From: Acidimicrobiia bacterium
Lineage (GTDB): Bacteria > Actinomycetota > Acidimicrobiia > Spongiisociales > UBA5794
Length of the DNA: 64,000 nt
Reading direction: 5' to 3'
Assembly (NCBI GenBank): GCA_965216945.1
Contig: CBDCGU010000003.1
Location: 2,440,382-2,504,381, forward strand
Shown: piece after piece, positions 25,031 through 56,299 of the stretch
Position numbering within the stretch: position 1 is the first letter of the stretch
Layout: each line of letters starts with the position of its first letter
Position numbers and translations under genes: made by a program
Notes under the pieces: model-generated
Databases searched by the model: none
Seen by the model: only the letters and a program-made list of their open reading frames with translations
Told to the model about the DNA's origin: nothing

Positions 25031-25144
25031 GGCTCCATCGTATCGGGGGGCGGACCGGTTGTGGCCGAGGTCGGTCCTGCGGATAGGGCCGGACGGCCCG
25101 CTGTGCGGCGGAGGTCGTGCATTGTTTCACTAAATTGCTGTGAC

Positions 25145-25762
25145 GTGAGACCATCCATCCCGCCCGCCACCGTGTCGCGGCTCCCGATCTATCTGCGGAC
25201 GCTTGCCGATCTTCCGGCATCCCAGGCCACGTGCTCATCGGAGCAGATGGCGTCGCTCGCAGGCGTGAACTCGGCCCAGGTGCGCAAAGACTTGTCGTTT
25301 CTGGGATCACATGGGACTCGCGGGGTCGGCTACGGCATCGCCGAACTGCGCGATCAGCTACGGCGTGCGCTGGGTCTGACGACCGAATACGCCGTCATGA
25401 TCGTGGGCGCAGGGAATTTGGGCAGCGCGCTGAGCAACTATGGCGGCTTTGGAACGTGGGGCTTCGAGGTCGTGGCGATTGTGGACGCCGACCCGGCGAA
25501 GATCGGCACCACCGTTGCCGGCATCCCAGTCGAACCCATCGACACCCTGGAGCAGATCGTTGCGCAGCGCGCCGTGCAGATCGCCATCATCGCCACCCCG
25601 TCCCGTGCCGCCCAGGAGGTCGCCAACCGGGTGATCGGGTCGGGAGTGCGCTCGATCCTCAACTTCGCACCGGCGGTGCTGGACGTGCCCGAGGGCGTCA
25701 AGGTTCGTCGGGTCGATCTGTCCACCGAGCTGCAGATCCTCACCTACCACCTGCAGCATTAG
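25145..25762 (+). CDS. rex: Redox-sensing transcriptional repressor Rex
   Basis: GTG 25145 within ORF 24413..25762. The product has TVSRLPIYLRTL, SSEQMASLAGVNSAQVRKDLSFLG, the Rossmann motif IVGAGNLGSAL, and ILNFAP. Confidence 0.85.
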   Translation: MRPSIPPATVSRLPIYLRTLADLPASQATCSSEQMASLAGVNSAQVRKDLSFLGSHGTRGVGYGIAELRDQLRRALGLTTEYAVMIVGAGNLGSALSNYGGFGTWGFEVVAIVDADPAKIGTTVAGIPVEPIDTLEQIVAQRAVQIAIIATPSRAAQEVANRVIGSGVRSILNFAPAVLDVPEGVKVRRVDLSTELQILTYHLQH

Positions 25763-25877: not shown

Positions 25878-26393
25878 TCAGGCTGCGGCGTCTTCTCGCT
25901 CGTAGCGGTCGAGGGCGACGACGAACATCACGAAGAGCACGAAGGACGCCAAGGTGACTGCGATCGCCGGTATCCGAATCTGGAAGGCGTTGAGCCCTTC
26001 CGTGTTCGCCGGACGCAGACCACGCGGTGCGTAGATCACGAAGAGCATGCTGCCGACCACCATCCAGCCGAAGGTGGCGGCGCCGGTGACGAGGAAGCCG
26101 AGGCGGGCACCCAGGTTGGTGTACAACAGGAGGTATCCCGTGCCGATGAAAGAGACGATGGCGACCACCGTGATCAGAATGCCGCGTGCTGCGATGGAGA
26201 AGTCCGAAGTCTCCCCCGTTGTGCCGTCGACTTGCTTGAAGACCGCGTCGTAGGCGTCGCCGAGCCAGGCCCGGAGCTGGGGGACGAACGCAAGGACGGA
26301 GATCACGATGGCGATGACGCCGATCCACTCCAGAGCCGACAGGCCACGCTCGTCGTGATGCAAACGCAAGGCGATCGGGTCGGTGTGCTTCAT
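25878..26393 (-). CDS. Polytopic membrane protein, last gene of the b6-type operon
   Basis: 171 aa from ATG 26393, which overlaps the cytochrome c stop. Four hydrophobic helices. The N-terminus ERGLSALEWIGVIAIVISVL resembles Flp/DUF4244 prepilin-like leaders. Confidence 0.6.
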   Translation of the reverse strand: MKHTDPIALRLHHDERGLSALEWIGVIAIVISVLAFVPQLRAWLGDAYDAVFKQVDGTTGETSDFSIAARGILITVVAIVSFIGTGYLLLYTNLGARLGFLVTGAATFGWMVVGSMLFVIYAPRGLRPANTEGLNAFQIRIPAIAVTLASFVLFVMFVVALDRYEREDAAA

Positions 26394-28051
26394 CACAGTG
26401 ACCTCTCGTAGGCGACGATGAGGGCGATGTCCTCGGCGCTGAGGATCTGTCCGAATCCGGGCATCCGTCCCGAGCCCAAGCCGTTGATGCCGTAGCTCTC
26501 GTTGTCGACGGTCCCGCGGATGACGAACTGGATCTGGTCCTCCACGTCGGGGAACTGGATGAGGGAGCGGCCGTCGAGCAGTGACGGTCCCCACGCACCG
26601 CTGCCGGCGCCCTGCTCGAAGGCAACTCCGGCCTGGTAGCCGCCGGTGTGGCAGCGGGCGCAGTATCCGTTGAACAGTCCGACCGCCCGCTCGGCCTCGC
26701 CGGTCGACAGCCCGGTTGCGGCAGCGACCTCGGCGAAGTCGACCTCCCACAACCGCTGCTCGGCGGACTCCTCCAAGAACGCCAGTCCGCTCTCGACCCT
26801 GTCGAGGAACACGTCCTGACGGTCGGTGATGACCCCGAGCGTGAGGTGCGCAGTGTCGAGATCCAGCAGGAAGGCCTCGGTTCGGGCCAGATCCTGGACC
26901 GGTGCTCCGGTGAGATCCGTTCCCGTGAACGCATTGTCGGGATCGAGTTCCAGCCCGTAGAGGTTGGTGAACGCCGGGTCCTGGATCATCTCGACTTCGG
27001 CGATGCGGTTGCCATCGTCGTCCAGCACGGGCGCTCCTTCGGCATCGACCCGATCGGTCACCTGGCGCACCATCACCGTGCTGTCGATGATTCCGCCGAT
27101 CTCGGTGAGGCGGCGTTCCACGTCGTCGGTCAGACCGTCGCGATCGGTGTCGGTGCCTGCTTCGCCGCAGCTCGATCCGACCGCAGACGCGGATGCCGGC
27201 GTGCACGTTCCGTCGCCGGCCATGAGGAACCGGATCTCGCCGGGGAAGTCTTCGATCACGGCAAACTGGGCCGGCGCCTCCTCGACATCCTCGACCGCAG
27301 CCTGCTGCTCGACGATCTGCCGGGCCACGGTGGCCTCTCCACCTGCGATGCGGGCGAGGGCGTCGGCGACGATGCCCTCGACCTCGTCCAGGGCCTGGCC
27401 CTGCGGGATCTGGATCGTCTCCAGGTATGCCATCACCTGATCGACTTCCTGCAACGTCATGGCACCGCCACCTTCGAGCCCGTTGGCGGGCATCGGCGTG
27501 CCGGCGCGTCCGAACTCGATCCAGTGCCTCACTTCGTCCTCGTCGAAGCGGAGGAACACGTCGTTGATCGACGGAGCGGTCCAGGCGACGTCGAGGCCGC
27601 TGCGTGCTTCGACGAACGGCGCAGCACCGCCACCGCCTTCAGGTCCGTGACAGTTGATGCACGAGAACGTGCTGTACCAGTGCTCGCCTTCCTCCACATC
27701 CTTCTCGTGGATCTTCTCGGCGGCGGCGATCTGGCGGTCGCCCTCGTTGATGAAGTAGACGGGCAGTGCCACTGCCAGCACTGCGGCCGAGACCACGGCG
27801 ACGTTGAGCACGCGTGTGATCCGATTCGTCTCGAGCTCGTCGTCCGACAGGTACGGCTGGAGGTTTTGCGGGGTCTCCTCGGCCAGGCGCGCCCGGCGCC
27901 GGCTGTTGATGAACAGGTAGCCGACCCACGCCAGGAAAGCCGCCGCCGCAAGCGTGAGTACGACCGATCCAACGCCCACGTTGGACGGTTCGACCGGTCC
28001 GTCCTCTGCGGCAACGGCCAGGAACGGCCGCAGAAGCTCGGTCACACGCAC
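26393..28051 (-). CDS. Membrane-anchored dihaem cytochrome c with a long inter-domain insert
   Basis: Two CxxCH motifs: CINCH at aa 131-135 and CARCH at aa 464-468. Two N-terminal helices. C-terminal GRMPGFG...IALIVAYERS. The GTG start overlaps the Rieske gene stop by 10 nt. Confidence 0.85.
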   Translation of the reverse strand: MRVTELLRPFLAVAAEDGPVEPSNVGVGSVVLTLAAAAFLAWVGYLFINSRRRARLAEETPQNLQPYLSDDELETNRITRVLNVAVVSAAVLAVALPVYFINEGDRQIAAAEKIHEKDVEEGEHWYSTFSCINCHGPEGGGGAAPFVEARSGLDVAWTAPSINDVFLRFDEDEVRHWIEFGRAGTPMPANGLEGGGAMTLQEVDQVMAYLETIQIPQGQALDEVEGIVADALARIAGGEATVARQIVEQQAAVEDVEEAPAQFAVIEDFPGEIRFLMAGDGTCTPASASAVGSSCGEAGTDTDRDGLTDDVERRLTEIGGIIDSTVMVRQVTDRVDAEGAPVLDDDGNRIAEVEMIQDPAFTNLYGLELDPDNAFTGTDLTGAPVQDLARTEAFLLDLDTAHLTLGVITDRQDVFLDRVESGLAFLEESAEQRLWEVDFAEVAAATGLSTGEAERAVGLFNGYCARCHTGGYQAGVAFEQGAGSGAWGPSLLDGRSLIQFPDVEDQIQFVIRGTVDNESYGINGLGSGRMPGFGQILSAEDIALIVAYERSL

Positions 28052-28908
28052 GACGGTCCCTGCGGGTAGGGAATCGTCTTGACCTTGGCCCGCGCCGTCT
28101 GCCTCACTTCTCCCGTCAGAACGATCAGCGAGCCCGAGTCGTCGACTTCGACGGCGAAGCGGTCCATGTTGCGGGGTGCCGGGCCCGACTCGTACTCACC
28201 GTGGAAGTTGTAGCGGGAGCCGTGGCACGGGCATTCGAATCCTTGCGACGGCACGCACGATGGGACACGACAGCCGAGGTGGACACATCGCTGCCACAGC
28301 GCCATGAGCCCCGGTTCGCCCCCCTCGGCCCCGGCCACGACATCGAGACCCTCGAACGAGCTCCCGGCGAGATCGCTCTCTGGGAAGGGGACGATCCAAC
28401 TCTGCGCCGCGGCGACGAACTTGGGGACGATCGACCCGTCGCTCTGCAGGATCTCGGCGCGCAACTCGTTGAGGGTGCCGACATTGATGGGCGTCCCGAA
28501 TCCGCCCTTGAGCTTCGGCCACATGAAGGCGAGACCGGCGATGGCGAACTGACCGAGGAAGATGCCGAAGAAGGCGAGCAGGGATCGGTTGAAGAACTTG
28601 CGCCGCTCGACTCCCATCTCCGCCGCGGTGAGCTCCTCTCGCTGCTCGAGCGGATCGACGGGCGGTGGTCCCGGCTCGGCGTGCTCGGCGGTCTCAGGTG
28701 GCGCCAGCAGGGCGACCGAGGACTCGGTGCCGCTCGCGGCGCGCACCTCGCGACCTTGCAGGTCGGCGCGCCTGGCGCGCTTGTCGAACTCGCCGGTGAT
28801 GGTGTCTTCTCCGCCGTCGCCCCGCCGGTACGCGATCGTCATCACGCTGATCGTCACCAGCAGCCCTGCGGCTGCCAGTCCGATGATGAAAGCTGCTGTA
28901 GCGCTCAT
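28042..28908 (-). CDS. Rieske [2Fe-2S] subunit
   Basis: CVHLGC and CPCHGS cluster boxes, an N-terminal helix, and an internal Tat-like ERRKFFNRSLLAF ahead of a second helix. Confidence 0.9.
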   Translation of the reverse strand: MSATAAFIIGLAAAGLLVTISVMTIAYRRGDGGEDTITGEFDKRARRADLQGREVRAASGTESSVALLAPPETAEHAEPGPPPVDPLEQREELTAAEMGVERRKFFNRSLLAFFGIFLGQFAIAGLAFMWPKLKGGFGTPINVGTLNELRAEILQSDGSIVPKFVAAAQSWIVPFPESDLAGSSFEGLDVVAGAEGGEPGLMALWQRCVHLGCRVPSCVPSQGFECPCHGSRYNFHGEYESGPAPRNMDRFAVEVDDSGSLIVLTGEVRQTARAKVKTIPYPQGPSCV

Positions 28909-28918
28909 GAGTCACCCA

Positions 28919-30037
28919 TCAGAAGTCGAAGAAGATGCCGTCTGCCCACGGGTATGTGAAGTTGAACCCCGGGCCGCGGAAGAATGAGCCATAGATCGTC
29001 AGGATCGCGGCAGAGAACAGGAAGAAGCTGAAGATCATGATCGCCAGCTTGCGGTCAGACGGTCGCACCGACGGGTTGCGGTCGATATAGGGGATCACGG
29101 CGAGGCCACCGAGCCCGAAGCCAGGTATGAGCACGCCGGCGACCTGGGGATCGAAGTAGGACAGCAGCTCCTGCAGCCCGAGGAAGTACCACGGCGCCTT
29201 CGACGGATTGGGCTGCTCATTGAAGTTGGCGAACTCGAGCAGCGGAGCGTCGACGAACACGGAGAAGACGAACAACGCTGCGGTGCAGATCATCAAGGCC
29301 ACGAACTCGATGGCCACCAGATGCGGCCACGTGTTGACCTTGTCGGTGGGTTCGGCCTTGACCTGCTGGATCGCACCGGCCTTGACGACGGTCAGCAGGC
29401 GCTGGGTGCGCACCCCCTCGGGGATGGTGGGTGCGGCAGCGGGGGCCGCGGCGGCGCCGGCGGCGGTCGCCACAGTCGCCGGAACGGGTGCAGGGGTCGC
29501 TTCGCCGGCGAATTGCGGCGCTGGTGTGCCATCCCACTTGGCACGTGCGAGGGCGGCGCGGCGCAGCAAGTCGGTGGGAACACCGTATTCGGCGGATTCG
29601 GCAGCGAGATCCCGCACGGGGCCACCCCCGGCTGCGGGGGCTGCGGCCGGTGCGGCCGGCTGCGCCTGCGGTGCGGCTGCGGCGGCGGGCTCTGCGGTGG
29701 CTGCGGCGGGCGGTACAGCGGCGCCGGTCATCTCGGCGAGCATCGCTTCGACGCTGACACCCTTGGCCTTCGCCTTGGCTTCCACCGATCGCCGGAAGAG
29801 CGACTCCGGGATACCTGCAGCCTCGGCGGCTGCCGCCATGTCGGGCGGCCCCGCAGCAGTGGCAGGTGGAGCGGCCTCCGCTTCTGCCACGGGCGCGGGG
29901 GCTGCGGGTTCGGGGGCTGCAGGCGCGGGCGGTTCCTCGCCCTTCATCTCGGCGAGTACTTCCTCGACCGTGCGCCCCTCTGCCTTGGCTCTCGCCTCGG
30001 CGGAGCGCCGGAGGATATGTTCGGGAATCTCAGCCAC
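28919..30037 (-). CDS. Cytochrome b6f subunit-IV-like protein (cytochrome b C-terminal part) with a ~235-aa repeat-containing N-terminal extension
   Basis: GTG 30037 lies 5 nt after AAGGAG, which overlaps the b6 TAA. The C-terminal core TWPHLVAIEF...NPSKAPWYFLGLQELL... parallels PetD AWPNDLLY...PEWYFFPVFQILR, recalled from memory. Confidence 0.8.
   Translation of the reverse strand: MAEIPEHILRRSAEARAKAEGRTVEEVLAEMKGEEPPAPAAPEPAAPAPVAEAEAAPPATAAGPPDMAAAAEAAGIPESLFRRSVEAKAKAKGVSVEAMLAEMTGAAVPPAAATAEPAAAAAPQAQPAAPAAAPAAGGGPVRDLAAESAEYGVPTDLLRRAALARAKWDGTPAPQFAGEATPAPVPATVATAAGAAAAPAAAPTIPEGVRTQRLLTVVKAGAIQQVKAEPTDKVNTWPHLVAIEFVALMICTAALFVFSVFVDAPLLEFANFNEQPNPSKAPWYFLGLQELLSYFDPQVAGVLIPGFGLGGLAVIPYIDRNPSVRPSDRKLAIMIFSFFLFSAAILTIYGSFFRGPGFNFTYPWADGIFFDF
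29522..30037 (-). repeat. Three copies of a ~30-aa helical module separated by Ala/Pro-rich linkers (coding repeat)
   Basis: IPEHILRRSAEARAKAEGRTVEEVLAEM / IPESLFRRSVEAKAKAKGVSVEAMLAEM / VPTDLLRRAALARAKWDG read in the translation. Confidence 0.85.
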
Positions 30038-30045
30038 AGCGCTCC

Positions 30046-30828
30046 TTACAGCGGACCGGAGATGCCGCCGTCCTTGCGCACCCGCCAGAAGTGCACCGCC
30101 ATGAAGATGACGATGACGAACGGCAGGAACAGGACATGGAGAACGTACCAGCGCAGCAGCGTGTCGGGTGTGATCTGTACGCCGCCGATCAACGCAAATG
30201 ACACTTGGTCGCCGATGACAGGGCTGTAGGCCGCCATGTTGGAACCGACGGTGACCGCCCACAACGCCAGCTGGTCCCACGGCAAGAGGTAGCCGGTGAA
30301 GGACAGAAGCAGCGTGAGCAGCAGGAGGATGACGCCGACGACCCAGTTGAACTCCCGGGGTGGTTTGTATGCGCCGTGATAGAACACACGTGCCATGTGG
30401 AGGAACACCGTGAGCACCATGGCGTGGGCACCCCAGCGGTGCATGTTGCGAACGAGCTGGCCGAACGCCACGTCGGTGGCCAGCGCCTGGATGTCTTGGA
30501 AGGCCTGCGGCGACGTGGGTCGGTAGTAGAACATCAGGAAGATGCCGGTGATCGTCAGCAAGATGAAGAGGAAGAAGCTGAGGCCACCGAGACACAAGGT
30601 GTAGGAGAGCCGAACCCCGTGCCGCTTCACCTTCACCGGGTGCAGGTGATAGAGCACGTTGTTCATGATCACGTAGGAGCGGTTGCGGGGGCTGTCCGAG
30701 TACCCGTGCCTGAACGGGGACCCGGGACGGAAGATGCTGGACCACGCCTGGCTGGAGCGGATGTGATCGCCCACCTCGGCGAGGCGATCCTTCAGCCCGA
30801 CCCGGCCGTTGCCATCTCCGTTCGCCAC
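30046..30828 (-). CDS. Cytochrome b6 (split cytochrome b, N-terminal four-helix part)
   Basis: Both His pairs are present with the right spacing ([21 protein letters not shown]; [19 protein letters not shown]). Also YLLPWDQ, a C-terminal [10 protein letters not shown] as in plastid b6, and YTLCLGG containing the haem ci cysteine. Confidence 0.9.
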
Positions 30829-30899
30829 CTCTGCTCCCTCGTGTGCTTCTTCGGCGCCGGCAGTTTCACCGACAGGCGCCGCTGGTCAAAATCCCGCTC

Positions 30900-31346
30900 C
30901 TACCAGCGCATGCCGTAGGAGTAGCCGTTCTTGAAGTCACGCTGTTGAGTGTTGTACTCCCACGGTTTTAGCTCGAATTCCTGCGCCTGATCTGCCAGGG
31001 AGCCGGCGAACTTGCCAAGCGTGATCACGCCCGTCGGGCAGCGGTCGATGCAGAGCGCACAGCGGGTGCACTCGTCCTCGTCGACGAGGAAGAATCCCTG
31101 GTTCTCGGCGGTGTCGCCAGGGTTGTCGACATTGGTGCCTTCTGCGATGGCGTCGAGCGACAGGTAGTGGATGCACTTCCACGGGCAGATGTCGACGCAG
31201 CCTTCGCACAGGATGCACTCCGATTGGTCGATGTGGAGGAACTGCTTCGGTTTGACCGCCGCCTTCAGGTACTCGCCATCCACCGCGGCGAGCTGATAGT
31301 CGTCGCGCATCGGCGGTGTCTCGAACCAGATGTCGGTCTTGGCCAC
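30900..31346 (-). CDS. Soluble 2x[4Fe-4S] ferredoxin-domain protein
   Basis: CILCEGCVDICP and CTRCALCIDRCP. No hydrophobic helix or signal peptide. GTG 31346 lies 8 nt after the upstream stop; ATG 31310 is an alternative. Confidence 0.8.
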   Translation of the reverse strand: MAKTDIWFETPPMRDDYQLAAVDGEYLKAAVKPKQFLHIDQSECILCEGCVDICPWKCIHYLSLDAIAEGTNVDNPGDTAENQGFFLVDEDECTRCALCIDRCPTGVITLGKFAGSLADQAQEFELKPWEYNTQQRDFKNGYSYGMRW

Positions 31347-31354
31347 GGCGCCCG

Positions 31355-31963
31355 CTACCTCTCGACCTTGGTGAGGGGCCGGCCGTACGTCGACACGGGC
31401 TGCGGTGGCGGTGCCGACTCGGCCCGCTTCTGGTATTCCTGCCACTGGTACATCACGACGGCAGTACCCCCGAGCACCACCACGGCGTACGTGCCGGAGA
31501 CGATGTCCTTGACGGCGGCATAGCTGATGGAGACCTCGTTGTTGAGGACGAGCCACGACGGGATCGTCACGGCGGTCTTCTGCGGGGTCCATTCCCACAC
31601 GGATTGGGTGAGGGTGAGCCACTCGTTGGGCACGATGCCGAAAAGGATCATCATCACCGAGACGAACACCAGCGCACCGACCGCGGCACGCGCCCACGTC
31701 ATCGGCCGCTTGTAGAGGAACGCCAGGCAGATCCCACCCAACAGGACGAACGCGCCGCCCAGCGAGATGATCTGACCGATGACGACCGGAAGCCATCCGC
31801 GGGGAATCGACGGGTAGAGGTCGCGGCCGAGACTGTCGGTCTCCGGTAGCCCGGTGAAGTGGGCGATCAACGCCCCGCCGATGGCGACGAGCGTGCCAAC
31901 CACGATGGCGGCGGCACCCATCTGCTGAAATCGACGTATCTCTCTGTCGGTCGTTGCTGCCAT
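31355..31963 (-). CDS. Four-helix membrane protein, first gene of the b6-type operon, unknown family
   Basis: 202 aa from ATG 31963 (GGCGAGG upstream): MAATTDREIRRFQQMGAAAIVVG... with four hydrophobic segments. The upstream part of ORF 31355..32584 was discarded. Confidence 0.6.
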   Translation of the reverse strand: MAATTDREIRRFQQMGAAAIVVGTLVAIGGALIAHFTGLPETDSLGRDLYPSIPRGWLPVVIGQIISLGGAFVLLGGICLAFLYKRPMTWARAAVGALVFVSVMMILFGIVPNEWLTLTQSVWEWTPQKTAVTIPSWLVLNNEVSISYAAVKDIVSGTYAVVVLGGTAVVMYQWQEYQKRAESAPPPQPVSTYGRPLTKVER

Positions 31964-40474: not shown

Positions 40475-40654
40475 GCACGCCCCCTCCCGAGAGGGCACTG
40501 CTGCCTGAAGCCTCGCGCGTAAAGACGCGGGACGGGCGGTCCGATGTGCCTGCACTTTGTTCTTACCGGCCAACCTCGTAGGCTGCCCGCCGCCACGGTT
40601 GCGTGGCGTGGGAAGGCTGCCAGACGCAGAGGAACCGCCGCGGTGACGTCCGAC

Positions 40655-42577
40655 ATGACAGAGACCTCCGAGCCCGCGACGACGTCTCCGACGACGCCCG
40701 GCCCGGTATCGCCACCCCGCCCGCGGGCCTATGCCGCGGTCAGCCTGACGTTTCTCGGCCTGTCCCTGATCCTGGGCGGTCTCGCCGGTCTTCAGCTACT
40801 GATCCCCGAATTGTTCGAGGGGGTCGCCTTCCTCACATACGGCAAGCTGGCGCCGATCGCAACGGACATGTTCCTCTATGGCTGGCTCACGATCGGGCTG
40901 GCCGGTGCGTTGCTGTACTCCGTCGGCAGCGCCGGGGGCGTCGGCATCCCGCAGTCGCTTGCCGCACGCTCGGCGCTCGCTCTCCTGACCGTGGGTGTCC
41001 TGGCCGGCACGGTTGGGATCGCTCTCGGTTTCAACGAAGGCCGGCAATATCTCGAGTACCCGCTGTGGGCCGACGTCTTCCTGCTCGCCGGGTTCATATC
41101 ACTCGCCGCCACGATCGCTCGCATGTCGAAACGCGCCGCGGTCAACCCAGGACCTGTGAGGTGGTACGCGAACGCCGCCGTGTTGTGGCTCGTCCTTGCG
41201 TTCATCGTCGGCAACGTTCCCGGTATCAGTGGCGTTGCCGTCGCCTTCCAGGCGTCGTTCTTTCGGGCGTCGCTTTTCGGGCTGTGGCTGGCAGCGGGCG
41301 CTGTCGCCGTCGTCTATCACCTGATCCCGCGCATCGCCGGACGCAGCGCGCTTGTCCCGACTCGGATGACGCTGCTCGGATTCTGGTCGTTGACATTCGT
41401 GTGGGCGCTCACCGCCCCGGCGAACCTGACGTACTCCCCGGCGCCGGACTGGTTGGAGACGGTCGGTGTCGTGTTTTCCTTCGGCCTGCTCATCCCCCCG
41501 CTCATCATCGGCAGCGACCTGCTCGTCGCCATGCGGGGCAGGTGGCAGGCAAGCGCCGGCAGCCTCCCACTCAGCTTCACGGTGCTCGGCATGGTTCTGC
41601 TCGCAATGTGGCCGCTCATGAACGTGTCGCTCTCCATCCGCTCGTCGAGTGGCGTCGTTCAGTTCACGGACTGGGTCTCGGGTACGGACGGGTTGCTGCT
41701 GTTCGGGGCAGTCTCGGCTTGGCTGGTGGCCTACAACTACTTCGCCGGCGGCGATCTCTTCCGGGGTTCTGCGCGCCGCGGGCTGGGAAGGCTGCACTAT
41801 CTCGGTACCGTCGTGGGTTTGCTGTTGTGGCTCGGCGCCTCGGTGCTGGCCGGCCTGACGGCGGGGTGGACTTGGGTGGCATCGGCGAACGACGCTGCGG
41901 TACCCGTGGCAGGCTTGGGCTTCTCCAACACCCTGGGCGGTGTCGAGGAGTTGTACATCGCCCGCTTCATCGGGTTCGTCGTCTTTCTCCTCGCCCAGTT
42001 GATCTTCATCGTGAACGTCACGACGGCCCGCGGCTCCGACCCCGCCCCCGACATCGACGAAGGCGTCCAGGAGCTCGACCCCGAGCTCGCTCTCGCCGGC
42101 GACGGCCCCTCCCGGCTGCGCCTCGCCGTGGTCACCCTGTTCGTGCTCGCCGTGACGTTCGTGGTCTTGGTGCCCTGGGCCGAGATGGCGGGTGCCGATG
42201 CGAGCATTCGCGGCGACACGGCGCGGCGATACACCACGGCGGACGAGGTCGCCCGGGGACGGGAGATCTACCTGCAGGAGGGCTGTTGGTACTGCCACAC
42301 CCAGCAGGTGCGGCCCATCGTCGGAGACGTCGGGCTTGGTCCCGTGTCCGAGGCCGGCGACTACGTGTTCGAGACTCCCGCACTCTTCGGCGTCCAGCGC
42401 CTCGGCCCCGACTTGATGCATGCCGGCAACCGTCCCGATACGGACGATCCGGCATGGCTCGAGCGATACCTGGCCGATCCGAGGTCGGAACGCTCGTACT
42501 CCAACATGCCGTCGTACGATCATCTCTCGAGCTCGGATCTCGCCGACCTCGCTGCCTATGTAGCAAGCCTGAAGTGA
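40655..42577 (+). CDS. cbb3-type oxidase CcoN-like membrane domain (all metal-ligand His substituted) fused to a CcoO-type monohaem cytochrome c domain
   Basis: 640 aa from ATG 40655. Similar to CcoN along its length, but APIATD, FRASLF, APANLTY and GTDGLL stand at the His ligand positions. The C-terminal domain has EGCWYCHTQQVRP...GPDLMHAG...NMPSY. Confidence 0.8.
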   Translation: MTETSEPATTSPTTPGPVSPPRPRAYAAVSLTFLGLSLILGGLAGLQLLIPELFEGVAFLTYGKLAPIATDMFLYGWLTIGLAGALLYSVGSAGGVGIPQSLAARSALALLTVGVLAGTVGIALGFNEGRQYLEYPLWADVFLLAGFISLAATIARMSKRAAVNPGPVRWYANAAVLWLVLAFIVGNVPGISGVAVAFQASFFRASLFGLWLAAGAVAVVYHLIPRIAGRSALVPTRMTLLGFWSLTFVWALTAPANLTYSPAPDWLETVGVVFSFGLLIPPLIIGSDLLVAMRGRWQASAGSLPLSFTVLGMVLLAMWPLMNVSLSIRSSSGVVQFTDWVSGTDGLLLFGAVSAWLVAYNYFAGGDLFRGSARRGLGRLHYLGTVVGLLLWLGASVLAGLTAGWTWVASANDAAVPVAGLGFSNTLGGVEELYIARFIGFVVFLLAQLIFIVNVTTARGSDPAPDIDEGVQELDPELALAGDGPSRLRLAVVTLFVLAVTFVVLVPWAEMAGADASIRGDTARRYTTADEVARGREIYLQEGCWYCHTQQVRPIVGDVGLGPVSEAGDYVFETPALFGVQRLGPDLMHAGNRPDTDDPAWLERYLADPRSERSYSNMPSYDHLSSSDLADLAAYVASLK

Positions 42578-44504: not shown

Positions 44505-44519
44505 ATGACAAGGTGTCAT
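44505..44519. promoter_or_regulatory. Perfect palindrome ATGACA-agg-TGTCAT in an unusually AT-rich stretch
   Basis: Read directly. It lies between the divergent LysM-protein gene and ctaA. Confidence 0.4.
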
Positions 44520-44662
44520 ATCATGAAATGAGCGTTGAACAATCTTATATGCCTAAGCCTGGGCAGACTCCCGAACGGCGCGGCCCACGAGGGAACGGTC
44601 TCCGTCGTAGCGAGTCGTCCCCGGAAGCGGTAAGGCCGCGGCGGTCGGGTACGCTTGCCGCG

Positions 44663-45631
44663 ATGGCCACAGCCAGCCCTCCTCCCGAGACCACACCGTC
44701 CAGAGCCGTGCCCCGGCTGGCGTGGGCGAGCCTGGCGTTCACGGTTGCGGTCATCCTCGGAGGGGCCGTCGTTCGAGCGACCGACTCCGGCGCCGGGTGC
44801 GGCGAGTCGTGGCCCCGTTGTGATGGCCAGCTCATCCCGGTCTCGCCGCAGGGTGCGACGGTGATCGAGTTCACCCACCGCATGATGACGGCGGCGCTCG
44901 GGTTTGCGCTGATCGCGCTGGTCGTGCTCGTACTGCGGCACTACCCCAGAGGGCATCGGGTGCGACGTGCGCTGGCGTGGACGATCGGGTTCTTCGTCGG
45001 CGAGGTCATCATCGGGGCACTACTCGTGGTCTTCGGGTGGGTGGAGGACGATGCCAGCATCGGCAGGGTGATCGCCGTGACGGTGCACCTCGTCAACACG
45101 TTCCTCCTGCTCGGAGCGATGACGCTCACGGCACATCTCGCCTCGGGCCGGCCACCCGTGGAGCCCGACTGGAGACGCACCCGTGATCGGCTCCTCCTGG
45201 TCGGTGTGATCACGCTGCTCGTCGTCGGCGCCTCCGGGGCGCTCAACGCCCTGAGCGACACGCTGTTCCCCGCCGACTCGTTGCTCGACGGCATCCGTGC
45301 CGAATTCGGCCCGACGGCTCCTTTCCTCTTGCGGTTGCGGACGGTGCACCCCCTCATCGCCGTAGCGGGCAGTGGTGTCATCTTCATGCTGACGCGTGCC
45401 CCCTCCCTGGGTGGTTCGCCGCGGGTCAACCGCCTCTCGGTGTCGATCCAGGCGCTGCTCGGAGCGCAGGTCGTCATCGGCCTGCTCAACGTGGCGCTGC
45501 TGACGCCGGTGGAGACTCAGGTCGTCCATCTGCTTGCGGCGGACGTTCTCTGGATCCTGTGGGTGCTGCTTGCTGCCGAGGTGATCGGGGTTCGGTCGGT
45601 GTACGGTCTCCGCGAGCGTGAAGCCGCATGA
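44663..45631 (+). CDS. ctaA: Haem A synthase (COX15/CtaA family)
   Basis: MATASPPPE...GGAVVRATDSGAGCGESWPRCDG..., eight helices, and conserved His in HRMMTA and VHLVNTF. The ORF-track start 44513 would add 50 non-hydrophobic residues inside the AT-rich region, so the start is uncertain. Confidence 0.8.
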   Translation: MATASPPPETTPSRAVPRLAWASLAFTVAVILGGAVVRATDSGAGCGESWPRCDGQLIPVSPQGATVIEFTHRMMTAALGFALIALVVLVLRHYPRGHRVRRALAWTIGFFVGEVIIGALLVVFGWVEDDASIGRVIAVTVHLVNTFLLLGAMTLTAHLASGRPPVEPDWRRTRDRLLLVGVITLLVVGASGALNALSDTLFPADSLLDGIRAEFGPTAPFLLRLRTVHPLIAVAGSGVIFMLTRAPSLGGSPRVNRLSVSIQALLGAQVVIGLLNVALLTPVETQVVHLLAADVLWILWVLLAAEVIGVRSVYGLREREAA

Positions 45632-52421: not shown

Positions 52422-53420
52422 GTGAGCCGGGTGTTCATCTCGTACCTGCGCAACGACTCGGCCGCCGACACCGGCCGACTCCACGACACGCTGACCGGGT
52501 TGCTGGGCAGCGAAGTCCTGTTCAAGGACGTGGCGGATCTCGAGTTCGGCGACAGCTGGAAGCTGGCCGTCCACGAGGCACTGTCGGACTCCGTGGTGGT
52601 GCTCGTCGTCATGGGTCCTCAATGGCATCCCTCCCCGGCGATCCTGTTCGAGCTGGATGCAGCCCTCTCCAGCAACGTGAGGGTGGTTCCCGTGCTCGTG
52701 AGAGACGCACGGATCGAGGACGTCACCCGTGACCTGCCCGAGTCGCTGGAGCGCCTCCGTGATCAGCATGCGATCTCGCTCGACCACGATCGGTGGCATC
52801 GCGACTGCGAGCGACTGGCGGACTGGCTGAGGAGCGTCCTGGAGGATCCGCACAGCCCCAAGGTGCGGCTCGACGAACGCCCTGATGCGAACGAGCTGCT
52901 CGATCGTGAGCCATCGCCCGGCGACAGGGACGGGCTGTTGAGCCACGCCCGGGATCTGGCGGAGAGCCTGGACGATCCGAGCATCTGGGAGACAGCGAAG
53001 CAGCAACACGCCACGTTCTATGACGAGCTGCGCGCCGCGGGCTCGCTCTCTGCGAGGACGAAGCTTGCATCGACGGTCGAGGAGGCACGCCGCCGGCTGA
53101 GGGTGGAGCACTCGATCGGTGAGCTTCTGTCCCGGCGGCCTGCAGAGAAGGGAGCCGAGGGGGCCCTGTGCAGCTACGCCGGCCGGCTCGGCGAGTATCT
53201 CGACGACCCCGCCATCGCCCGGCGTGCCGCGCTCGAACTGGAGGATTTCGAGGAGCAGCTCAGCGAGATCTCGAGGACGCGAGGTGACAGCGGCAACCCA
53301 CGCGCCCCGCAGCTGGCATTGAACGAGATCGTCGACGACGCGATGGGCCGGCTCGCCGCCGAGCTTCCGGGCATCACGCGGCGGCATCCTCATCGGGAGT
53401 GGCCCGGGAACCCGGCATGA
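52422..53420 (+). CDS. TIR-domain protein with a C-terminal helical repeat domain
   Basis: N-terminal ~140 aa: RVFISYLRNDS...FKDVADLEFGDSW...SVVVLVVMGPQW...ILFELDAAL...VVPVLV, a bacterial TIR pattern with a candidate catalytic Glu. The C-terminus has two LxxxLDDPxI repeats. Confidence 0.7.
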   Translation: MSRVFISYLRNDSAADTGRLHDTLTGLLGSEVLFKDVADLEFGDSWKLAVHEALSDSVVVLVVMGPQWHPSPAILFELDAALSSNVRVVPVLVRDARIEDVTRDLPESLERLRDQHAISLDHDRWHRDCERLADWLRSVLEDPHSPKVRLDERPDANELLDREPSPGDRDGLLSHARDLAESLDDPSIWETAKQQHATFYDELRAAGSLSARTKLASTVEEARRRLRVEHSIGELLSRRPAEKGAEGALCSYAGRLGEYLDDPAIARRAALELEDFEEQLSEISRTRGDSGNPRAPQLALNEIVDDAMGRLAAELPGITRRHPHREWPGNPA

Positions 53421-53475: not shown

Positions 53476-54735
53476 ATGACACCTGACGTCCTCGTCGTCG
53501 GCGGCGGGCCCGCCGGCGCCGCCACCGCCTACTGGCTCGCCCGTGACGGATTGTCCGTCCTGGTCGCCGAGAAGAAGAGCTATCCCCGCGCCAAGACCTG
53601 CGGCGACGGTCTCACGCCGCGTGCCATCAAGCAGCTCACCGACATGGGGTTCGACTTCGATGTGCCCGAGCTGCACAAGATCGTCGGGTTGCGCGCCTAC
53701 TCGGGTGAGCTGAAGTTGGAGCTGACGTGGCCCCAGCACTCCAGCTACCCCGATTGGGGTGCGGTGATGCGGCGTAGCGACCTCGACATGCAGGTTGCGT
53801 CACTGGCCGAGAAGCAGGGCGCCGTGATCCGGCAGCGCAACGAAGCCGTTGCGGTGGTCGAAGACGGTCGGCTGGTTGGTGTCGACCTCCGACAGAAGGA
53901 CGCCTCGGGCGTCGTCGACGCCGAACGGGTCACGCCCAAGATCGTCGTCATCGCCGACGGCTCGCTCTCACGGTTCGGACGAAAGCTCGGCACGGCGCGC
54001 CGCAAGGACTACCCCTACGGTTTGGCGGTTCGCGGCTATTTTGCCAGCCCGAACTCGACCGATGGATACATGGAGAGCCAGCTCGACATTCACGATGCCG
54101 AGGGCCGTTCGATGCCCGGCTACGGCTGGATCTTCCCGCTCGGCGACGGTGCCATCAATGTGGGGGTCGGCGTGCTGTCCACGTTCAAGAACTGGAAGGA
54201 CGTCAACACCTCGAAGACGCTGGCGGCCTACGTCGATGCGCTCCCACCCCACTGGCAGGTGACGGCGGACGAAGCGATCACGGAGCCCGTCGGAGGCAAA
54301 CTGCCGATGTCGTTCTCCGTCGGGCCCAAGGTCGGCCGCAACTGGCTGACCGTGGGTGATGCAGCCGGGGCAGTGAACCCGTTCAACGGTGAGGGCATCG
54401 ATTATGCCTACGAGACCGGGCGCATGGCCGCTCCCCACATCGCCGCAGCCGTCGCAACCGGTGACACGACCTTGCTGTGGCGCTACCGGCAGCAGCTCGA
54501 TGACGAGTACGCCGCCTACCACCGGGTGGCACGGGCCTTCGCCATCGCCATCGGGAACCCGCGGCTCATGCGGAGCCTCACCCGGATCGGCTTGCGTTCC
54601 CGGCCATTGATGGAGTGGGTGCTCAAGGTGATGGCGAACCTGCTCGAACCGGAGGAGCTCGGGATGGAAGAACGGATCTACCGGGCGGTGGAGAGAGTCG
54701 TGGCGCTCGGCCCCGAACCACTGGTGCGCAACTGA
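53476..54735 (+). CDS. Geranylgeranyl reductase family flavoprotein (MenJ-like)
   Basis: DVLVVGGGPAGAATAYWLA, KTCGDGLTPRA, GDAAGAVNPFNGEGI. Confidence 0.85.
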   Translation: MTPDVLVVGGGPAGAATAYWLARDGLSVLVAEKKSYPRAKTCGDGLTPRAIKQLTDMGFDFDVPELHKIVGLRAYSGELKLELTWPQHSSYPDWGAVMRRSDLDMQVASLAEKQGAVIRQRNEAVAVVEDGRLVGVDLRQKDASGVVDAERVTPKIVVIADGSLSRFGRKLGTARRKDYPYGLAVRGYFASPNSTDGYMESQLDIHDAEGRSMPGYGWIFPLGDGAINVGVGVLSTFKNWKDVNTSKTLAAYVDALPPHWQVTADEAITEPVGGKLPMSFSVGPKVGRNWLTVGDAAGAVNPFNGEGIDYAYETGRMAAPHIAAAVATGDTTLLWRYRQQLDDEYAAYHRVARAFAIAIGNPRLMRSLTRIGLRSRPLMEWVLKVMANLLEPEELGMEERIYRAVERVVALGPEPLVRN

Positions 54736-55762: not shown

Positions 55763-56299
55763 ATGAGCGACAACGCCCCCGACACCGCACCGGACGAGCT
55801 CGCTCCTCTCGCCGACCGTGTCATCCCCGACGACCCCACCCTGGCAAGGCTGGCGGGGGAGTTCGGCCAAGTGGTGTTCGCTACGGAGGACGACACCGAC
55901 GTCGCCCATGTGCCGGCCACGGACGTGGCGGCGTTCGCCGCCGCCGTGCGGGCCGCCGGCTACGACGTGTTCATCGACCTGTGTGGCGTCGATTACCTCC
56001 GCCGCCACCCCCGCTACGAAGTGGTCATCAACCTGCTGTCCCATACGAAGCGGCGCCGGATGCGAATTCGGGTGGGCGTCGACGGGGCCAACCCCGAGGT
56101 GCCCAGCGTGAGCGAGGTGTTCGCCGGGGCCAACTTCTACGAGCGGGAGACGTACGACCTGTTCGGCATCCGTTTCATCGGTCATCCCGATCTCACCCGG
56201 ATCCTCCTCCCCGACGATTGGGAGGGCTTCCCGCTGCGCAAGGACTACTCGGTCGGCTCGGTGCCGGTCCAGTTCAAGGGATCTCACAAAGCGCCATGA
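55763..56299 (+). CDS. nuoC: NADH-quinone oxidoreductase subunit C
   Basis: FIDLCGVDYL, ANFYERETYDLFGI.F.GHPD, and the operon position. Confidence 0.9.
   Translation: MSDNAPDTAPDELAPLADRVIPDDPTLARLAGEFGQVVFATEDDTDVAHVPATDVAAFAAAVRAAGYDVFIDLCGVDYLRRHPRYEVVINLLSHTKRRRMRIRVGVDGANPEVPSVSEVFAGANFYERETYDLFGIRFIGHPDLTRILLPDDWEGFPLRKDYSVGSVPVQFKGSHKAP

Follow-up and report, generated by a model that had tools for sequence, protein, structure and literature searches.

A conserved ferredoxin gene next to a cytochrome b6 with a haem ci-type cysteine in Actinomycetota: a plausible n-side electron port

The stretch of DNA analyzed here (64,000 nucleotides; hereafter the window, to which all coordinates refer) carries a tight seven-gene operon on the minus strand (31963..25878), encoding in order the membrane protein memU, a ferredoxin (Fd), cytochrome b6, subunit IV, a Rieske protein, a dihaem cytochrome c and the membrane protein memD. 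As judged from sequence, the ferredoxin very probably belongs to an actinobacterial b6c complex as a subunit on its cytoplasmic side, and a haem ci attached covalently at the n-side site of quinone reduction is probably part of the low-potential chain of this complex. It is plausible to read the gene pair as a ferredoxin:quinone port. The best explanation of the locus as a whole, which we favor tentatively and with slightly more doubt than belief, is that the seven genes encode a single b6c-type complex serving an Acidimicrobiia-like actinobacterium as respiratory menaquinol:cytochrome c oxidoreductase, in which bound ferredoxin would act as a side port to the quinone-reduction site with an inward net direction.

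Operon organization

Neighboring genes of the operon either overlap or lie 8-71 nt apart. The first, memU (31355..31963, minus strand, as are all features below), was recognized from its open reading frame and a transmembrane (TM) scan as a membrane protein of 202 aa, predicted to form four TM helices, and 8 nt separate its stop codon from the start of Fd (30900..31346; 148 aa, GTG start), a 2x[4Fe-4S]-type ferredoxin that matches Pfam Fer4 families. The Fd gene is located 71 nt upstream of the gene for a b6-type four-helix cytochrome b (30046..30828; 260 aa, GTG start), identified by PF00033, NF040969 and the b6 chains in PDB. The remaining genes encode subunit IV (28919..30037; 372 aa; PF00032 and NF040970, ExtQ), the Rieske [2Fe-2S] protein (28042..28908; 288 aa, two TM segments, CPCHGSRY motif; PF00355), a membrane-anchored dihaem cytochrome c (26393..28051; 552 aa, CINCH and CARCH motifs; PF13442 and PF00034), whose first 10 nt are shared with the end of the Rieske gene, and memD (25878..26393), a 171-aa membrane protein whose ATG shares nucleotides with the stop codon of cytochrome c (TGATG).

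Neither memU nor memD has a Pfam or NCBIfam match, and for both proteins, as for the repeats of subunit IV described below, nothing significant was found even at E = 10. A domain scan detected no flavin/NAD(P) domain or flavoprotein gene in the operon. The search for the Rex operator consensus returned a single site with three mismatches, which is at chance level, given that one or more matches also turned up in 38 of 100 shuffled sequences; the GC content of the DNA is 67%. The operon lies in a respiratory island: the window also contains nuo genes, a haem-copper oxidase and CtaA.

The haem ci site of cytochrome b6

A preliminary description of this DNA had proposed that the b6 cysteine encoded at 30594..30592 occupies the position of the haem ci/cn ligand, and the alignment with structurally characterized chains bears this out. 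In a phmmer search against PDB (E = 4e-48), b6 residues 75-79 (SYTLC) align with residues 31-35 of 1vf5_A (NIFYC), and thus Cys79 (codon TGT, 30592..30594) corresponds to PetB Cys35, which binds haem ci/cn through a thioether. The protein matches PF00033 with E = 1.1e-48, and the b6 chains of PDB align with it end to end (E ~1e-48). None of the 81 homologous b6 sequences spanning this position lacks the CxGG cysteine, which occurs as LCLGG or FCLGG. The equivalents of PetB Arg207/Lys208 (R251/K252), a basic pair close to the haem propionates, are invariant, and so are the four haem-b histidines, arranged as the two pairs on helices B and D that ligate haems bP and bN (H130/H144 and H231/H246). 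Subunit IV Phe245 aligns with PetD Phe40, and the adjoining Glu244 is invariant; in low-potential forms, Glu replaces Phe40 as the subunit IV residue over the haem face.

The dedicated n-side haem attachment system of oxygenic phototrophs is CCB1-4, and no CCB or YGGT family match was found in the operon and about 20 neighboring genes scanned. Kao & Hunte (2014) had already drawn attention to the haem ci cysteine of the APWY clade, while regarding haem ci itself as still unverified throughout that clade (PMC4122944).

Extensions of the cytochrome b subunits and features of the Rieske protein

Conserved n-side stretches that are absent from PetB and PetD occur at b6 residues 34-70 and subunit IV residues 203-240. 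Cytochrome b6 has a conserved n-side N-terminal extension of about 45 residues, which contains an HLHP motif (His61 and His63; 30637..30648) that is invariant in the alignment, including the flavoprotein-linked cytochrome b of locus L171. By position only, the HLHP histidines are candidate equivalents of Kuste4571 His43, which has been proposed from Kuenenia models to ligate an extra interfacial haem b (PMC12954380). The N-terminal ~200 residues of subunit IV likewise form an n-side extension, built of three ~28-aa repeats and Ala/Pro linkers, and its C-terminal part comprises three TM helices and two invariant elements, the Glu244-Phe245 pair and the APWY Qo motif (residues 281-284; nt 29186..29197). 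In the Rieske protein, Ser231 and Tyr233 are conserved in at least 98% of sequences, and its best PDB matches are 9rk4 and 9rk3, the Kuenenia proteins Kuste4569 and Kustd1480.

The ferredoxin

The two cluster motifs of Fd, CILCEGCVDICP at residues 44-55 and CTRCALCIDRCP at residues 93-104, are separated by 37 residues, and the protein exceeds the cut-offs of PF00037, PF14697 and PF12838. All eight CxxCxxCxxxCP cysteines are invariant, with a ninth invariant cysteine at position 58. No hydrophobic segment was detected in Fd (maximum Kyte-Doolittle 19-residue mean of 1.03 against a threshold of 1.6), and no twin-arginine or signal sequence was found, which together point to a cytoplasmic protein. 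Motifs and TM scan therefore agree with the preliminary description of a soluble 148-aa two-cluster ferredoxin that lacks a membrane anchor. Two of its further details need rewording: the 37-residue "insert" has the length given, but it is the whole spacer between the cluster motifs, which is roughly 18-20 residues in minimal clostridial-type ferredoxins; and the aromatic C-terminus described as conserved, a GYxYGMR[WF] tail, is kept in Acidimicrobiia-type sequences but absent from more distant lineages.

Both the N- and C-terminal extensions of Fd are conserved, and homologues begin alike with MAKTD or MARTD. Among the 60 best PDB matches listed for Fd, there were no chains from b6f or bc1 entries. 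An AF2 model of Fd alone, built on a 53-sequence alignment of close homologues, was unusable (mean pLDDT 44.6, pTM 0.29) and was set aside.

Conservation of gene linkage

Related loci numbered 170, and the Fd-b6 count was limited to the 150 with at least 400 nt of downstream sequence. The b6 gene directly follows Fd in 148 of these 150 loci, a pairing that is not attributable to chance and that answers positively whether the gene pair persists in relatives, a check called for in the preliminary description. The linkage holds in four divergent lineages of Actinomycetota in which Fd is only 36-43% identical. Of the two exceptions, L169 has memU and Fd followed by an unrelated gene, and L090 has Fd but also lacks b6.

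A memU homologue lies directly upstream of Fd in 149 of 158 loci. The other nine, distant loci encode in the same slot a TM protein of 115-154 aa with the same TW(T/A)xA...(I/V)PxxWL helix, and memU is a likely membrane anchor for the ferredoxin. The position of memD is kept in 55 of the first 80 loci and is missing only where the downstream sequence ends. In distant lineages the module lies beside cytochrome c maturation genes; this ccm/ResBC neighborhood is variable and is absent from the window.

The fraction of positions that are at least 90% conserved is 0.65 in b6, 0.47 in Fd (88 sequences), 0.27 in subunit IV, 0.24 in the Rieske protein, 0.18 in memD, 0.16 in cytochrome c and 0.13 in memU, so that Fd is the second most conserved product of the operon, ahead of the Rieske protein. 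Apparent Fd-b6 or memU-Fd fusions (P0133, P0158, P0162, P0195, P0199, P0211 and P0232) were discarded because they read as frameshifted or chimeric metagenome gene calls. Small stand-alone relatives from other phyla (P0223, P0226 and P0235) were set aside too, since they appear to be C-terminal flavoprotein fragments at contig ends or in broken genes.

Relationship to flavoprotein modules and anammox complexes

Multi-domain polyferredoxins aside, the closest relatives of Fd outside its own family are the C-terminal dicluster domains of ~600-aa Fer4_20 + Pyr_redox_2 flavoproteins, which are 40-44% identical to Fd (E ~1e-13) in a search of 1.84 billion representative proteins. In loci L171-L176 the identity to the dicluster domain is 38-43% over 82-103 residues, and the aligned region begins ahead of the first cluster motif. 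In Fd itself no Fer4_20 or Pyr_redox_2 domain was found, only Fer4 domains. The flavoprotein genes lie directly upstream of Rieske genes in L171, L172, L174 and L176, and L171 and L176 also encode a cytochrome b that is 54-55% identical to the window b6. This homology to the FeS module of cytochrome b-linked flavoproteins supports a physical partnership of Fd with the complex on the n-side. The haem ci cysteine is missing from the flavoprotein-linked cytochromes b of these two loci (L171 and L176), and the FeS module thus does not need haem ci.

The domain architecture of these flavoproteins recurs in the cytoplasmic NAD(P) oxidoreductase subunit of the Kuenenia Rieske/cytochrome b complexes (PMC12954380), and the related 'subfamily G' complexes also have a cytoplasmic NAD(P) oxidoreductase (Dibrova 2017, PMC5600118; PMC12954380). 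The Kuenenia stuttgartiensis clusters Kuste4569-4574 and Kustd1480-1485 resemble the window operon in having a b6-type cytochrome b of the same clade, and their Rieske proteins are the nearest solved relatives of the window Rieske protein. Fd is homologous to the C-terminal dicluster module of flavoproteins that match the Kuenenia oxidoreductase in domain architecture and gene context. The differences are nevertheless considerable: Kuenenia has a flavin/NAD(P) subunit where the window has a stand-alone 148-aa FeS protein and a dedicated membrane protein, hexa/octahaem cytochromes in place of the dihaem cytochrome c, and five TM helices in subunit IV rather than three, and it is an anammox bacterium whereas the host of the window is apparently an aerobic heterotroph. 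The Kuenenia complexes are reportedly also treated in Kartal 2013 and de Almeida 2016.

Comparison with other b6-type complexes

Like the window complex, cytochrome b6f and the firmicute b6c complexes (Bacillus QcrABC, Heliobacterium) have a split cytochrome b with subunit IV, and they share with the window b6 the CxGG cysteine of the Cys35 type, the Arg/Lys pair and the four haem-b histidines; the Heliobacterium complex also has a dihaem cytochrome c. In contrast to the window operon, no ferredoxin subunit is encoded alongside b6f or present in its solved structures. The window complex further differs from both by its Qo motif (APWY versus PEWY/PDWY), the long n-side extensions of b6 and subunit IV, and the gene order b6-subunit IV-Rieske-cytochrome c.

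The closest annotated cytochrome b family is ExtP of the Geobacter ExtOPQ module (NF040969, selenite/tellurite reduction operon cytochrome b). Against this model the window b6 scores 309 bits, above the equivalog cut-off of 290, and against ExtQ (NF040970) the window subunit IV scores 56 bits, under the cut-off of 150. The Geobacter extHIJKLMNOPQS cluster includes a porin, a rhodanese and four multihaem cytochromes, and the only FeS protein listed for it is the Rieske protein (PMC5877670). None of these ext-cluster partners (porin, rhodanese, multihaem cytochromes) occurs in the window operon, and with no ferredoxin listed for the ext cluster, association with a ferredoxin is not universal in the clade. 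In the 'PDWF-FeS clade' of Kao & Hunte (2014), cytochrome b is fused to 4Fe-4S or flavin domains (PMC4122944). Cytochrome b is joined to cytoplasmic FeS modules there as well, but by fusion, in another clade and with another Qo motif. A mechanistic analogy, and an analogy only, is offered by PsaC, a small and very conserved 2x[4Fe-4S] protein that carries extensions and, bound to the n-side of photosystem I, serves as the interface to soluble ferredoxin; its similarity to Fd is of the generic Fer4 kind (E ~0.03-0.07), and its partner complex is different.

Direction of electron flow and alternative explanations

Under the preferred explanation, the core of the complex would consist of b6, subunit IV, the Rieske protein and the dihaem cytochrome c, with the ferredoxin stably associated and probably held by memU and the n-side extensions of b6 and subunit IV. 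This would place both [4Fe-4S] clusters of the ferredoxin within electron-transfer distance of the haem bN/ci pair, and this side port would join cytoplasmic low-potential carriers to the quinone-reduction site. In the preferred, inward direction, electrons would pass from reduced soluble ferredoxin to the bound clusters, to haem ci/bN and on to menaquinone, the reduced ferredoxin being supplied, for example, by 2-oxoglutarate:ferredoxin or pyruvate:ferredoxin oxidoreductases. Related Acidimicrobiia use a 2-oxoglutarate:ferredoxin oxidoreductase in place of 2-oxoglutarate dehydrogenase (PMC12008989), which suggests a need for a sink for reduced ferredoxin. The inward direction is plausible, on grounds that are purely physiological. 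To our knowledge, other KOR-bearing actinobacteria do without such a ferredoxin subunit.

The main rival to an inward port, although in our view an unlikely one, is a flow in the opposite direction, in which bifurcation at the Qo site would push the low-potential electron via bP, bN/ci and possibly an extra haem to the Fd clusters, with menaquinol oxidation by cytochrome c/O2 driving a supply of reduced ferredoxin to cytoplasmic enzymes. Such an outward port would parallel the NAD(P)H production proposed for the anammox complexes, the closest known relatives (PMC12954380), and Fd is homologous to the FeS module of the proposed NAD(P)H-making subunit. The Ser/Tyr pair kept in CPCHGSRY raises the Rieske potential, and the best solved relatives, Kuste4569 and Kustd1480, measured +303 and +335 mV, respectively (PMC12954380), although for the window Rieske protein the potential is a prediction from sequence. 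The APWY motif was tied by Kao & Hunte to reverse or unusual operation (PMC4122944), and the HLHP histidines are conserved where the extra haem ligand was proposed. However, the host appears to be an aerobic heterotroph with an NADH-oxidizing complex I in the window, and a shortage of low-potential reductant is unlikely; diverting the low-potential electron would forfeit the Q cycle in what is apparently the main complex III; and the conservation of the haem ci cysteine, the Arg/Lys pair and the Glu suggests that the quinone-reduction site is functional. An extended wire, running from haem bP through bN/ci and an HLHP-ligated inter-monomer haem b to the two [4Fe-4S] clusters of the ferredoxin, and making the complex a reversible bifurcating quinol:cytochrome c/ferredoxin oxidoreductase, seems improbable; if it did exist, it would allow an aerobic complex III to link the reduction of ferredoxin to the oxidation of menaquinol by cytochrome c, or to catalyze the reverse reaction.

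It is also conceivable, if rather unlikely, that Fd and memU are subunits or assembly factors through which no electrons flow, such as a redox or oxygen sensor gating the complex, a structural n-side cap or a helper in haem ci insertion from the cytoplasmic side. The memU-Fd pair occurs without b6 in L169, CCB-type maturation genes are not recognizable in the cluster, memU and memD belong to no known family, and the module of distant lineages adjoins cytochrome c maturation genes; yet those ccm/ResBC neighbors vary while the linkage to b6 is constant, both full CxxCxxCxxxCP motifs are invariant, and the homologous FeS domains of the flavoprotein relatives serve as an electron wire (PMC12954380). 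That Fd is an ordinary soluble carrier, serving for instance KOR/PFOR or P450-type enzymes and merely co-transcribed with the complex, appears very unlikely. Its lack of a membrane anchor and its public annotation as ferredoxin or 4Fe-4S binding protein would suit this role, and operon membership by itself is no proof of interaction, but the gene order is kept down to 36% identity, Fd is conserved above the Rieske protein, its gene is spaced from that of the membrane protein in a manner typical of translational coupling, and homologous modules are repeatedly fused to flavoproteins beside the same cytochrome b clade.

Significance

Since the b6f structures of 2003, it has been debated whether haem ci/cn accepts electrons from ferredoxin on the n-side, and tests in chloroplasts are hampered by the presence of ferredoxin, FNR, PGR5 and NDH. 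Here, a conserved haem ci site is accompanied by an adjacent ferredoxin gene that selection has maintained in at least several hundred species-level genomes, and if Fd is bound, the complex would offer a defined non-photosynthetic system for measuring FeS-to-haem electron transfer on the n-side. A full-text literature search returned no description of a ferredoxin subunit in an actinobacterial b6-type complex. The Fd-bearing b6c complex is very probably a minimal version of a known, uncharacterized kind of complex, and the one in the window represents a minimal, flavin-free relative of the anammox complexes with proposed bifurcating NAD(P)H production. It also fits the proposal of Dibrova and colleagues that Rieske/cytochrome b complexes arose from a four-helix cytochrome b anchoring a cytoplasmic FeS oxidoreductase (PMC5600118). 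In current genome annotations the parts are labeled "ferredoxin", "NuoI", "PreA subunit" or "ExtP", and with such labels a probable complex III subunit is overlooked when the metabolism of the abundant marine and soil Acidimicrobiia is reconstructed.

Gene order and its conservation

Seven closely packed genes on the minus strand (31963..25878) follow the order memU, ferredoxin (Fd), cytochrome b6, subunit IV (SUIV), Rieske protein, cytochrome c and memD, and we read this operon as encoding one b6c-type menaquinol:cytochrome c oxidoreductase. The genes at its two ends, memU (31963..31355, 202 aa, four predicted TM helices) and memD (26393..25878, 171 aa, four TM helices), encode membrane proteins without a recognised family; between them lie the genes for Fd (31346..30900, 148 aa), b6 (30828..30046, 260 aa), SUIV (30037..28919, 372 aa), the Rieske protein (28908..28042, 288 aa) and a membrane-anchored dihaem cytochrome c (28051..26393, 552 aa). 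Spacers measure 8 nt between memU and Fd, 71 nt between Fd and b6, and 8 nt and 10 nt at the next two junctions, and the Rieske/cytochrome c and cytochrome c/memD junctions are overlaps. Gene identities are backed by Pfam and NCBIfam searches, and b6, SUIV and the Rieske protein are members of the split-cytochrome-b Rieske/cytochrome b family. The GC content of the window is ~67%, and the nearest database relatives of Fd carry Acidimicrobiia annotation.

When genomes were scanned at one per species, at least 504 relatives emerged, and in the best 80 the seven-gene order is constant wherever the contig reaches far enough; loci from metagenomes agreed with this. Fd is followed by b6 in 148 of the 150 loci (out of 170 in all) whose downstream sequence extends for 400 nt or more, so that the gene pair pointed out in the preliminary description is indeed conserved in relatives, as part of a larger conserved unit. 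Searched exhaustively, a set of 1.84 billion representative proteins shows the Fd family to be compact with a few divergent branches, and those bearing an organism name are all labelled Actinomycetota. Four divergent branches, with Fd 36-43% identical, also have this module: the memU slot is taken by a small TM protein that has one recognisable helix in common with memU, and Fd, b6, SUIV, Rieske protein and cytochrome c follow. Three of the four are flanked by cytochrome c maturation genes (Ccm or ResB/CcsA), two of these three also having a haem-copper oxidase, and the fourth is known from contigs <3 kb only. The adjoining maturation genes are System I ccmABC(D)(E)FH in loci L082 (1..5530) and L089 (2656..7271) and System II ResB/CcsA with DsbD and thioredoxin in L088 (2828..6714); none occurs in the immediate flank of the operon in the window. 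The two exceptions have Fd with no b6 downstream: in L169 (1052..2129) the gene after memU and Fd is unrelated, Fpg/Nei-like and oppositely oriented, and in L090 (672..1085) the gene after Fd encodes a 511-aa protein without a family. Second copies, rearrangements or misassemblies could account for them, and because of them memU and Fd are best regarded as a unit that nearly always accompanies b6 but need not do so.

The ferredoxin and its flavoprotein relatives

Fd contains two complete CxxCxxCxxxCP motifs with 37 residues between them, and its sequence has neither a hydrophobic segment nor an export signal; its earlier description as a cytoplasmic two-cluster ferredoxin without a membrane anchor is therefore upheld. 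A ninth cysteine, Cys58, lies three residues past the first cluster motif (CPWKC) and never varies, either within the ferredoxin family or among the flavoprotein C-terminal domains aligned with it; this cysteine could serve as an alternative ligand or belong to the second coordination sphere.

Polyferredoxins with multiple domains aside, the best matches of Fd outside its family are single stretches of 40-44% identity (E ~1e-13) that span the spacer and reach into the N-terminal extension, and that fall at the C-terminal end of ~550-700-aa proteins composed of Fer4_20, Pyr_redox_2 (FAD/NAD(P)) and a dicluster domain. Among loci with context available, the flavoprotein gene lies directly upstream of the Rieske gene in L171, L172, L174 and L176, and outside a Rieske context in L173 and L175. 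The cytochrome b of L171 and L176 is 54-55% identical to the window b6, and L171 also encodes a multihaem cytochrome c. Fd is most likely the stand-alone, flavin-free counterpart of the FeS module borne on the flavoprotein in related complexes. Two tandem copies of the flavoprotein are present in L171 (2..2444).

Constraint, taken as the share of positions with 90% or higher conservation among the loci, is unusually strong on Fd (0.47), second among the seven products to b6 (0.65) and followed by SUIV (0.27), Rieske protein (0.24), memD (0.18), cytochrome c (0.16) and memU (0.13). Near-invariant n-side segments missing from PetB/PetD were found at residues 34-70 of b6 and 203-240 of SUIV; conserved cytoplasmic surfaces on these two subunits, alongside an FeS protein of the cytoplasm that is likewise conserved, are what docking would predict. 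SUIV also has a cytoplasmic N-terminal extension of ~200 residues (29440..30037, minus strand; residues 1-~200) with no Pfam match, in which three ~28-aa repeats (IPEHILRRSAEARAKAEGRTVEEVLAEM, IPESLFRRSVEAKAKAKGVSVEAMLAEM, VPTDLLRRAALARAKWDG...) are separated by Ala/Pro-rich linkers. Species differ in its length, and the first of the repeats shows moderate conservation; the extension could act as a tether, or as a place where cytoplasmic partners dock.

The predicted haem ci site

The cysteine proposed earlier as the haem ci ligand of b6 is confirmed as Cys79 (TGT, 30594..30592, minus strand): a phmmer search against all PDB chains pairs SYTLC of b6 with NIFYC of PetB, placing Cys79 on Cys35, to which haem ci/cn is attached through a thioether bond. 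The cysteine is present in all 81 homologous b6 sequences that reach the site, and b6 retains both CxGG glycines, the Arg and Lys that correspond to PetB Arg207/Lys208, and all four haem-b histidines. In SUIV, Phe245 aligns with PetD Phe40, which sits over haem cn, and the neighbouring Glu244 is invariant. Low-potential haem ci in menaquinone organisms is associated with a glutamate ligand (PMC12954380), and either Glu244 or Phe245 may be the residue facing haem ci. Occupancy of b6 by haem ci is plausible on these grounds.

The b6 N-terminal extension contains an HLHP motif (His61-Leu-His63-Pro, 30637..30648) that is invariant in all lineages examined and is also kept in the flavoprotein-linked long cytochrome b of L171, at residues 42-45, close in numbering to Kuste4571 His43. 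AlphaFold3 models of the Rieske/cytochrome b complexes of the anammox bacterium Kuenenia stuttgartiensis predict an extra haem b between two cytochrome b monomers, ligated by an N-terminal histidine (PMC12954380), of which the HLHP histidines are candidate equivalents, judged by position and numbering. Among solved structures, the window Rieske protein matches 9rk4 and 9rk3 best, both of which are Kuenenia Rieske proteins, and these matches and the HLHP motif point the same way as the homology of Fd to the flavoproteins. In the L171 cytochrome b, Gly replaces the haem ci cysteine, and APWY and the SUIV glutamate are kept.

Relation to known complexes

By Qo motif, b6, SUIV and the Rieske protein belong to the APWY clade of Kao and Hunte, who listed split cytochrome b in Acidimicrobidae (Ilumatobacter), placed actinobacterial split cytochromes b in the PEWY-cyt c or APWY clade, and noted CxGG motifs in the latter, stressing that haem ci there was unverified (PMC4122944); the cysteine itself is thus not new. 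Cytoplasmic FeS/flavin subunits accompany b6-type cytochromes in anammox bacteria (PMC12954380) and in Dibrova's subfamily G (PMC5600118), and in the Kuenenia models an NAD(P) oxidoreductase subunit lies on the n-side with an FeS cluster chain leading off haem bN/cN (PMC12954380). The full texts searched yielded no account of a stand-alone ferredoxin and a dedicated membrane protein as conserved parts of an Actinomycetota respiratory b6c operon, which published operon maps may already depict, nor a report of homology between such a ferredoxin and the reductase FeS module. The complex is a new variant of a kind already known but biochemically uncharacterised. As it is widespread and minimal, follow-up appears worthwhile, with the cultured genera Ilumatobacter, Iamia and Acidimicrobium among the related taxa that are candidates for carrying the operon.

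The b6 scores 309 bits against an NCBIfam equivalog cut-off of 290 for 'selenite/tellurite reduction operon b-type cytochrome ExtP'. The Geobacter ext cluster has a wholly different partner set, so that the name is misleading here, and automatic annotation would give b6 a Geobacter-specific functional name unsupported by its gene context.

Function and direction of electron flow

The preliminary description had envisaged a ferredoxin-b6 link at the n-side. This reading is supported in part: the 148/150 loci and the flavoprotein FeS-module homology give strong support to the linkage of the genes and to a partnership on the n-side, occupancy by haem ci is plausible, and flow from ferredoxin to quinone is a candidate direction. 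Fd is quite probably a real n-side subunit of the b6c complex, and we consider it improbable that it is an unrelated soluble carrier. The bound dicluster Fd would probably be positioned by memU and the conserved b6 and SUIV extensions, and its clusters would connect cytoplasmic low-potential carriers with haem bN/ci. A role for Fd without electron flux seems rather doubtful.

Regarding direction, inward flow from reduced ferredoxin to menaquinone, as originally suggested, is tentatively put forward as the full reading, at somewhat below an even chance. Such flow is exergonic, leaves the Q cycle in place and offers an outlet for ferredoxin that has been reduced by 2-oxoglutarate:ferredoxin oxidoreductase (KOR) or pyruvate:ferredoxin oxidoreductase (PFOR); related Acidimicrobiia rely on KOR instead of 2-oxoglutarate dehydrogenase (PMC12008989). 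Outward flow, in which quinol would drive ferredoxin reduction through Qo bifurcation, has already been proposed for the nearest relatives (PMC12954380) and agrees with the APWY Qo motif (PMC4122944) and with the conserved Ser231/Tyr233 of a Rieske protein of high-potential type, the potential being read from sequence; it is harder to square with an aerobic heterotroph having an NADH-oxidising complex I and with an apparently intact quinone-reduction site, and we regard it as unlikely.

Respiratory surroundings

The operon lies in a respiratory island. A Rex-type redox-sensing regulator gene (25100..25762, plus strand; Put_DNA-bind_N and CoA_binding) converges on the operon end, as does its counterpart in the distant locus L082 (10829..11491); a Rex operator search gave nothing above chance. 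In a 677-aa product (40544..42577, plus strand) a domain of haem-copper oxidase subunit I (COX1, weak match) is joined to a FixO-like monohaem cytochrome c domain; the protein is predicted to be a C-family-like oxidase or a relative of NO reductase, unusual in being a single polypeptide. A COX1(+FixO) oxidase also occurs in L088 and L089. CtaA is encoded nearby (44513..45631).

The nuo genes for complex I, including NuoF and NuoG, occupy ~54.8-64 kb; in a 582-aa product (55981..57729, plus strand) the 49-kDa (NuoD) domain is confined to the C-terminal half, which suggests a NuoC-NuoD fusion. Upstream of this cluster, a geranylgeranyl-reductase-like flavoprotein (53476..54735, plus strand) may serve to saturate the side chain of menaquinone, in keeping with the use of that quinone. 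A 332-aa protein with an N-terminal TIR_2 domain (52422..53420, plus strand) also adjoins the respiratory genes and may be defence-related.
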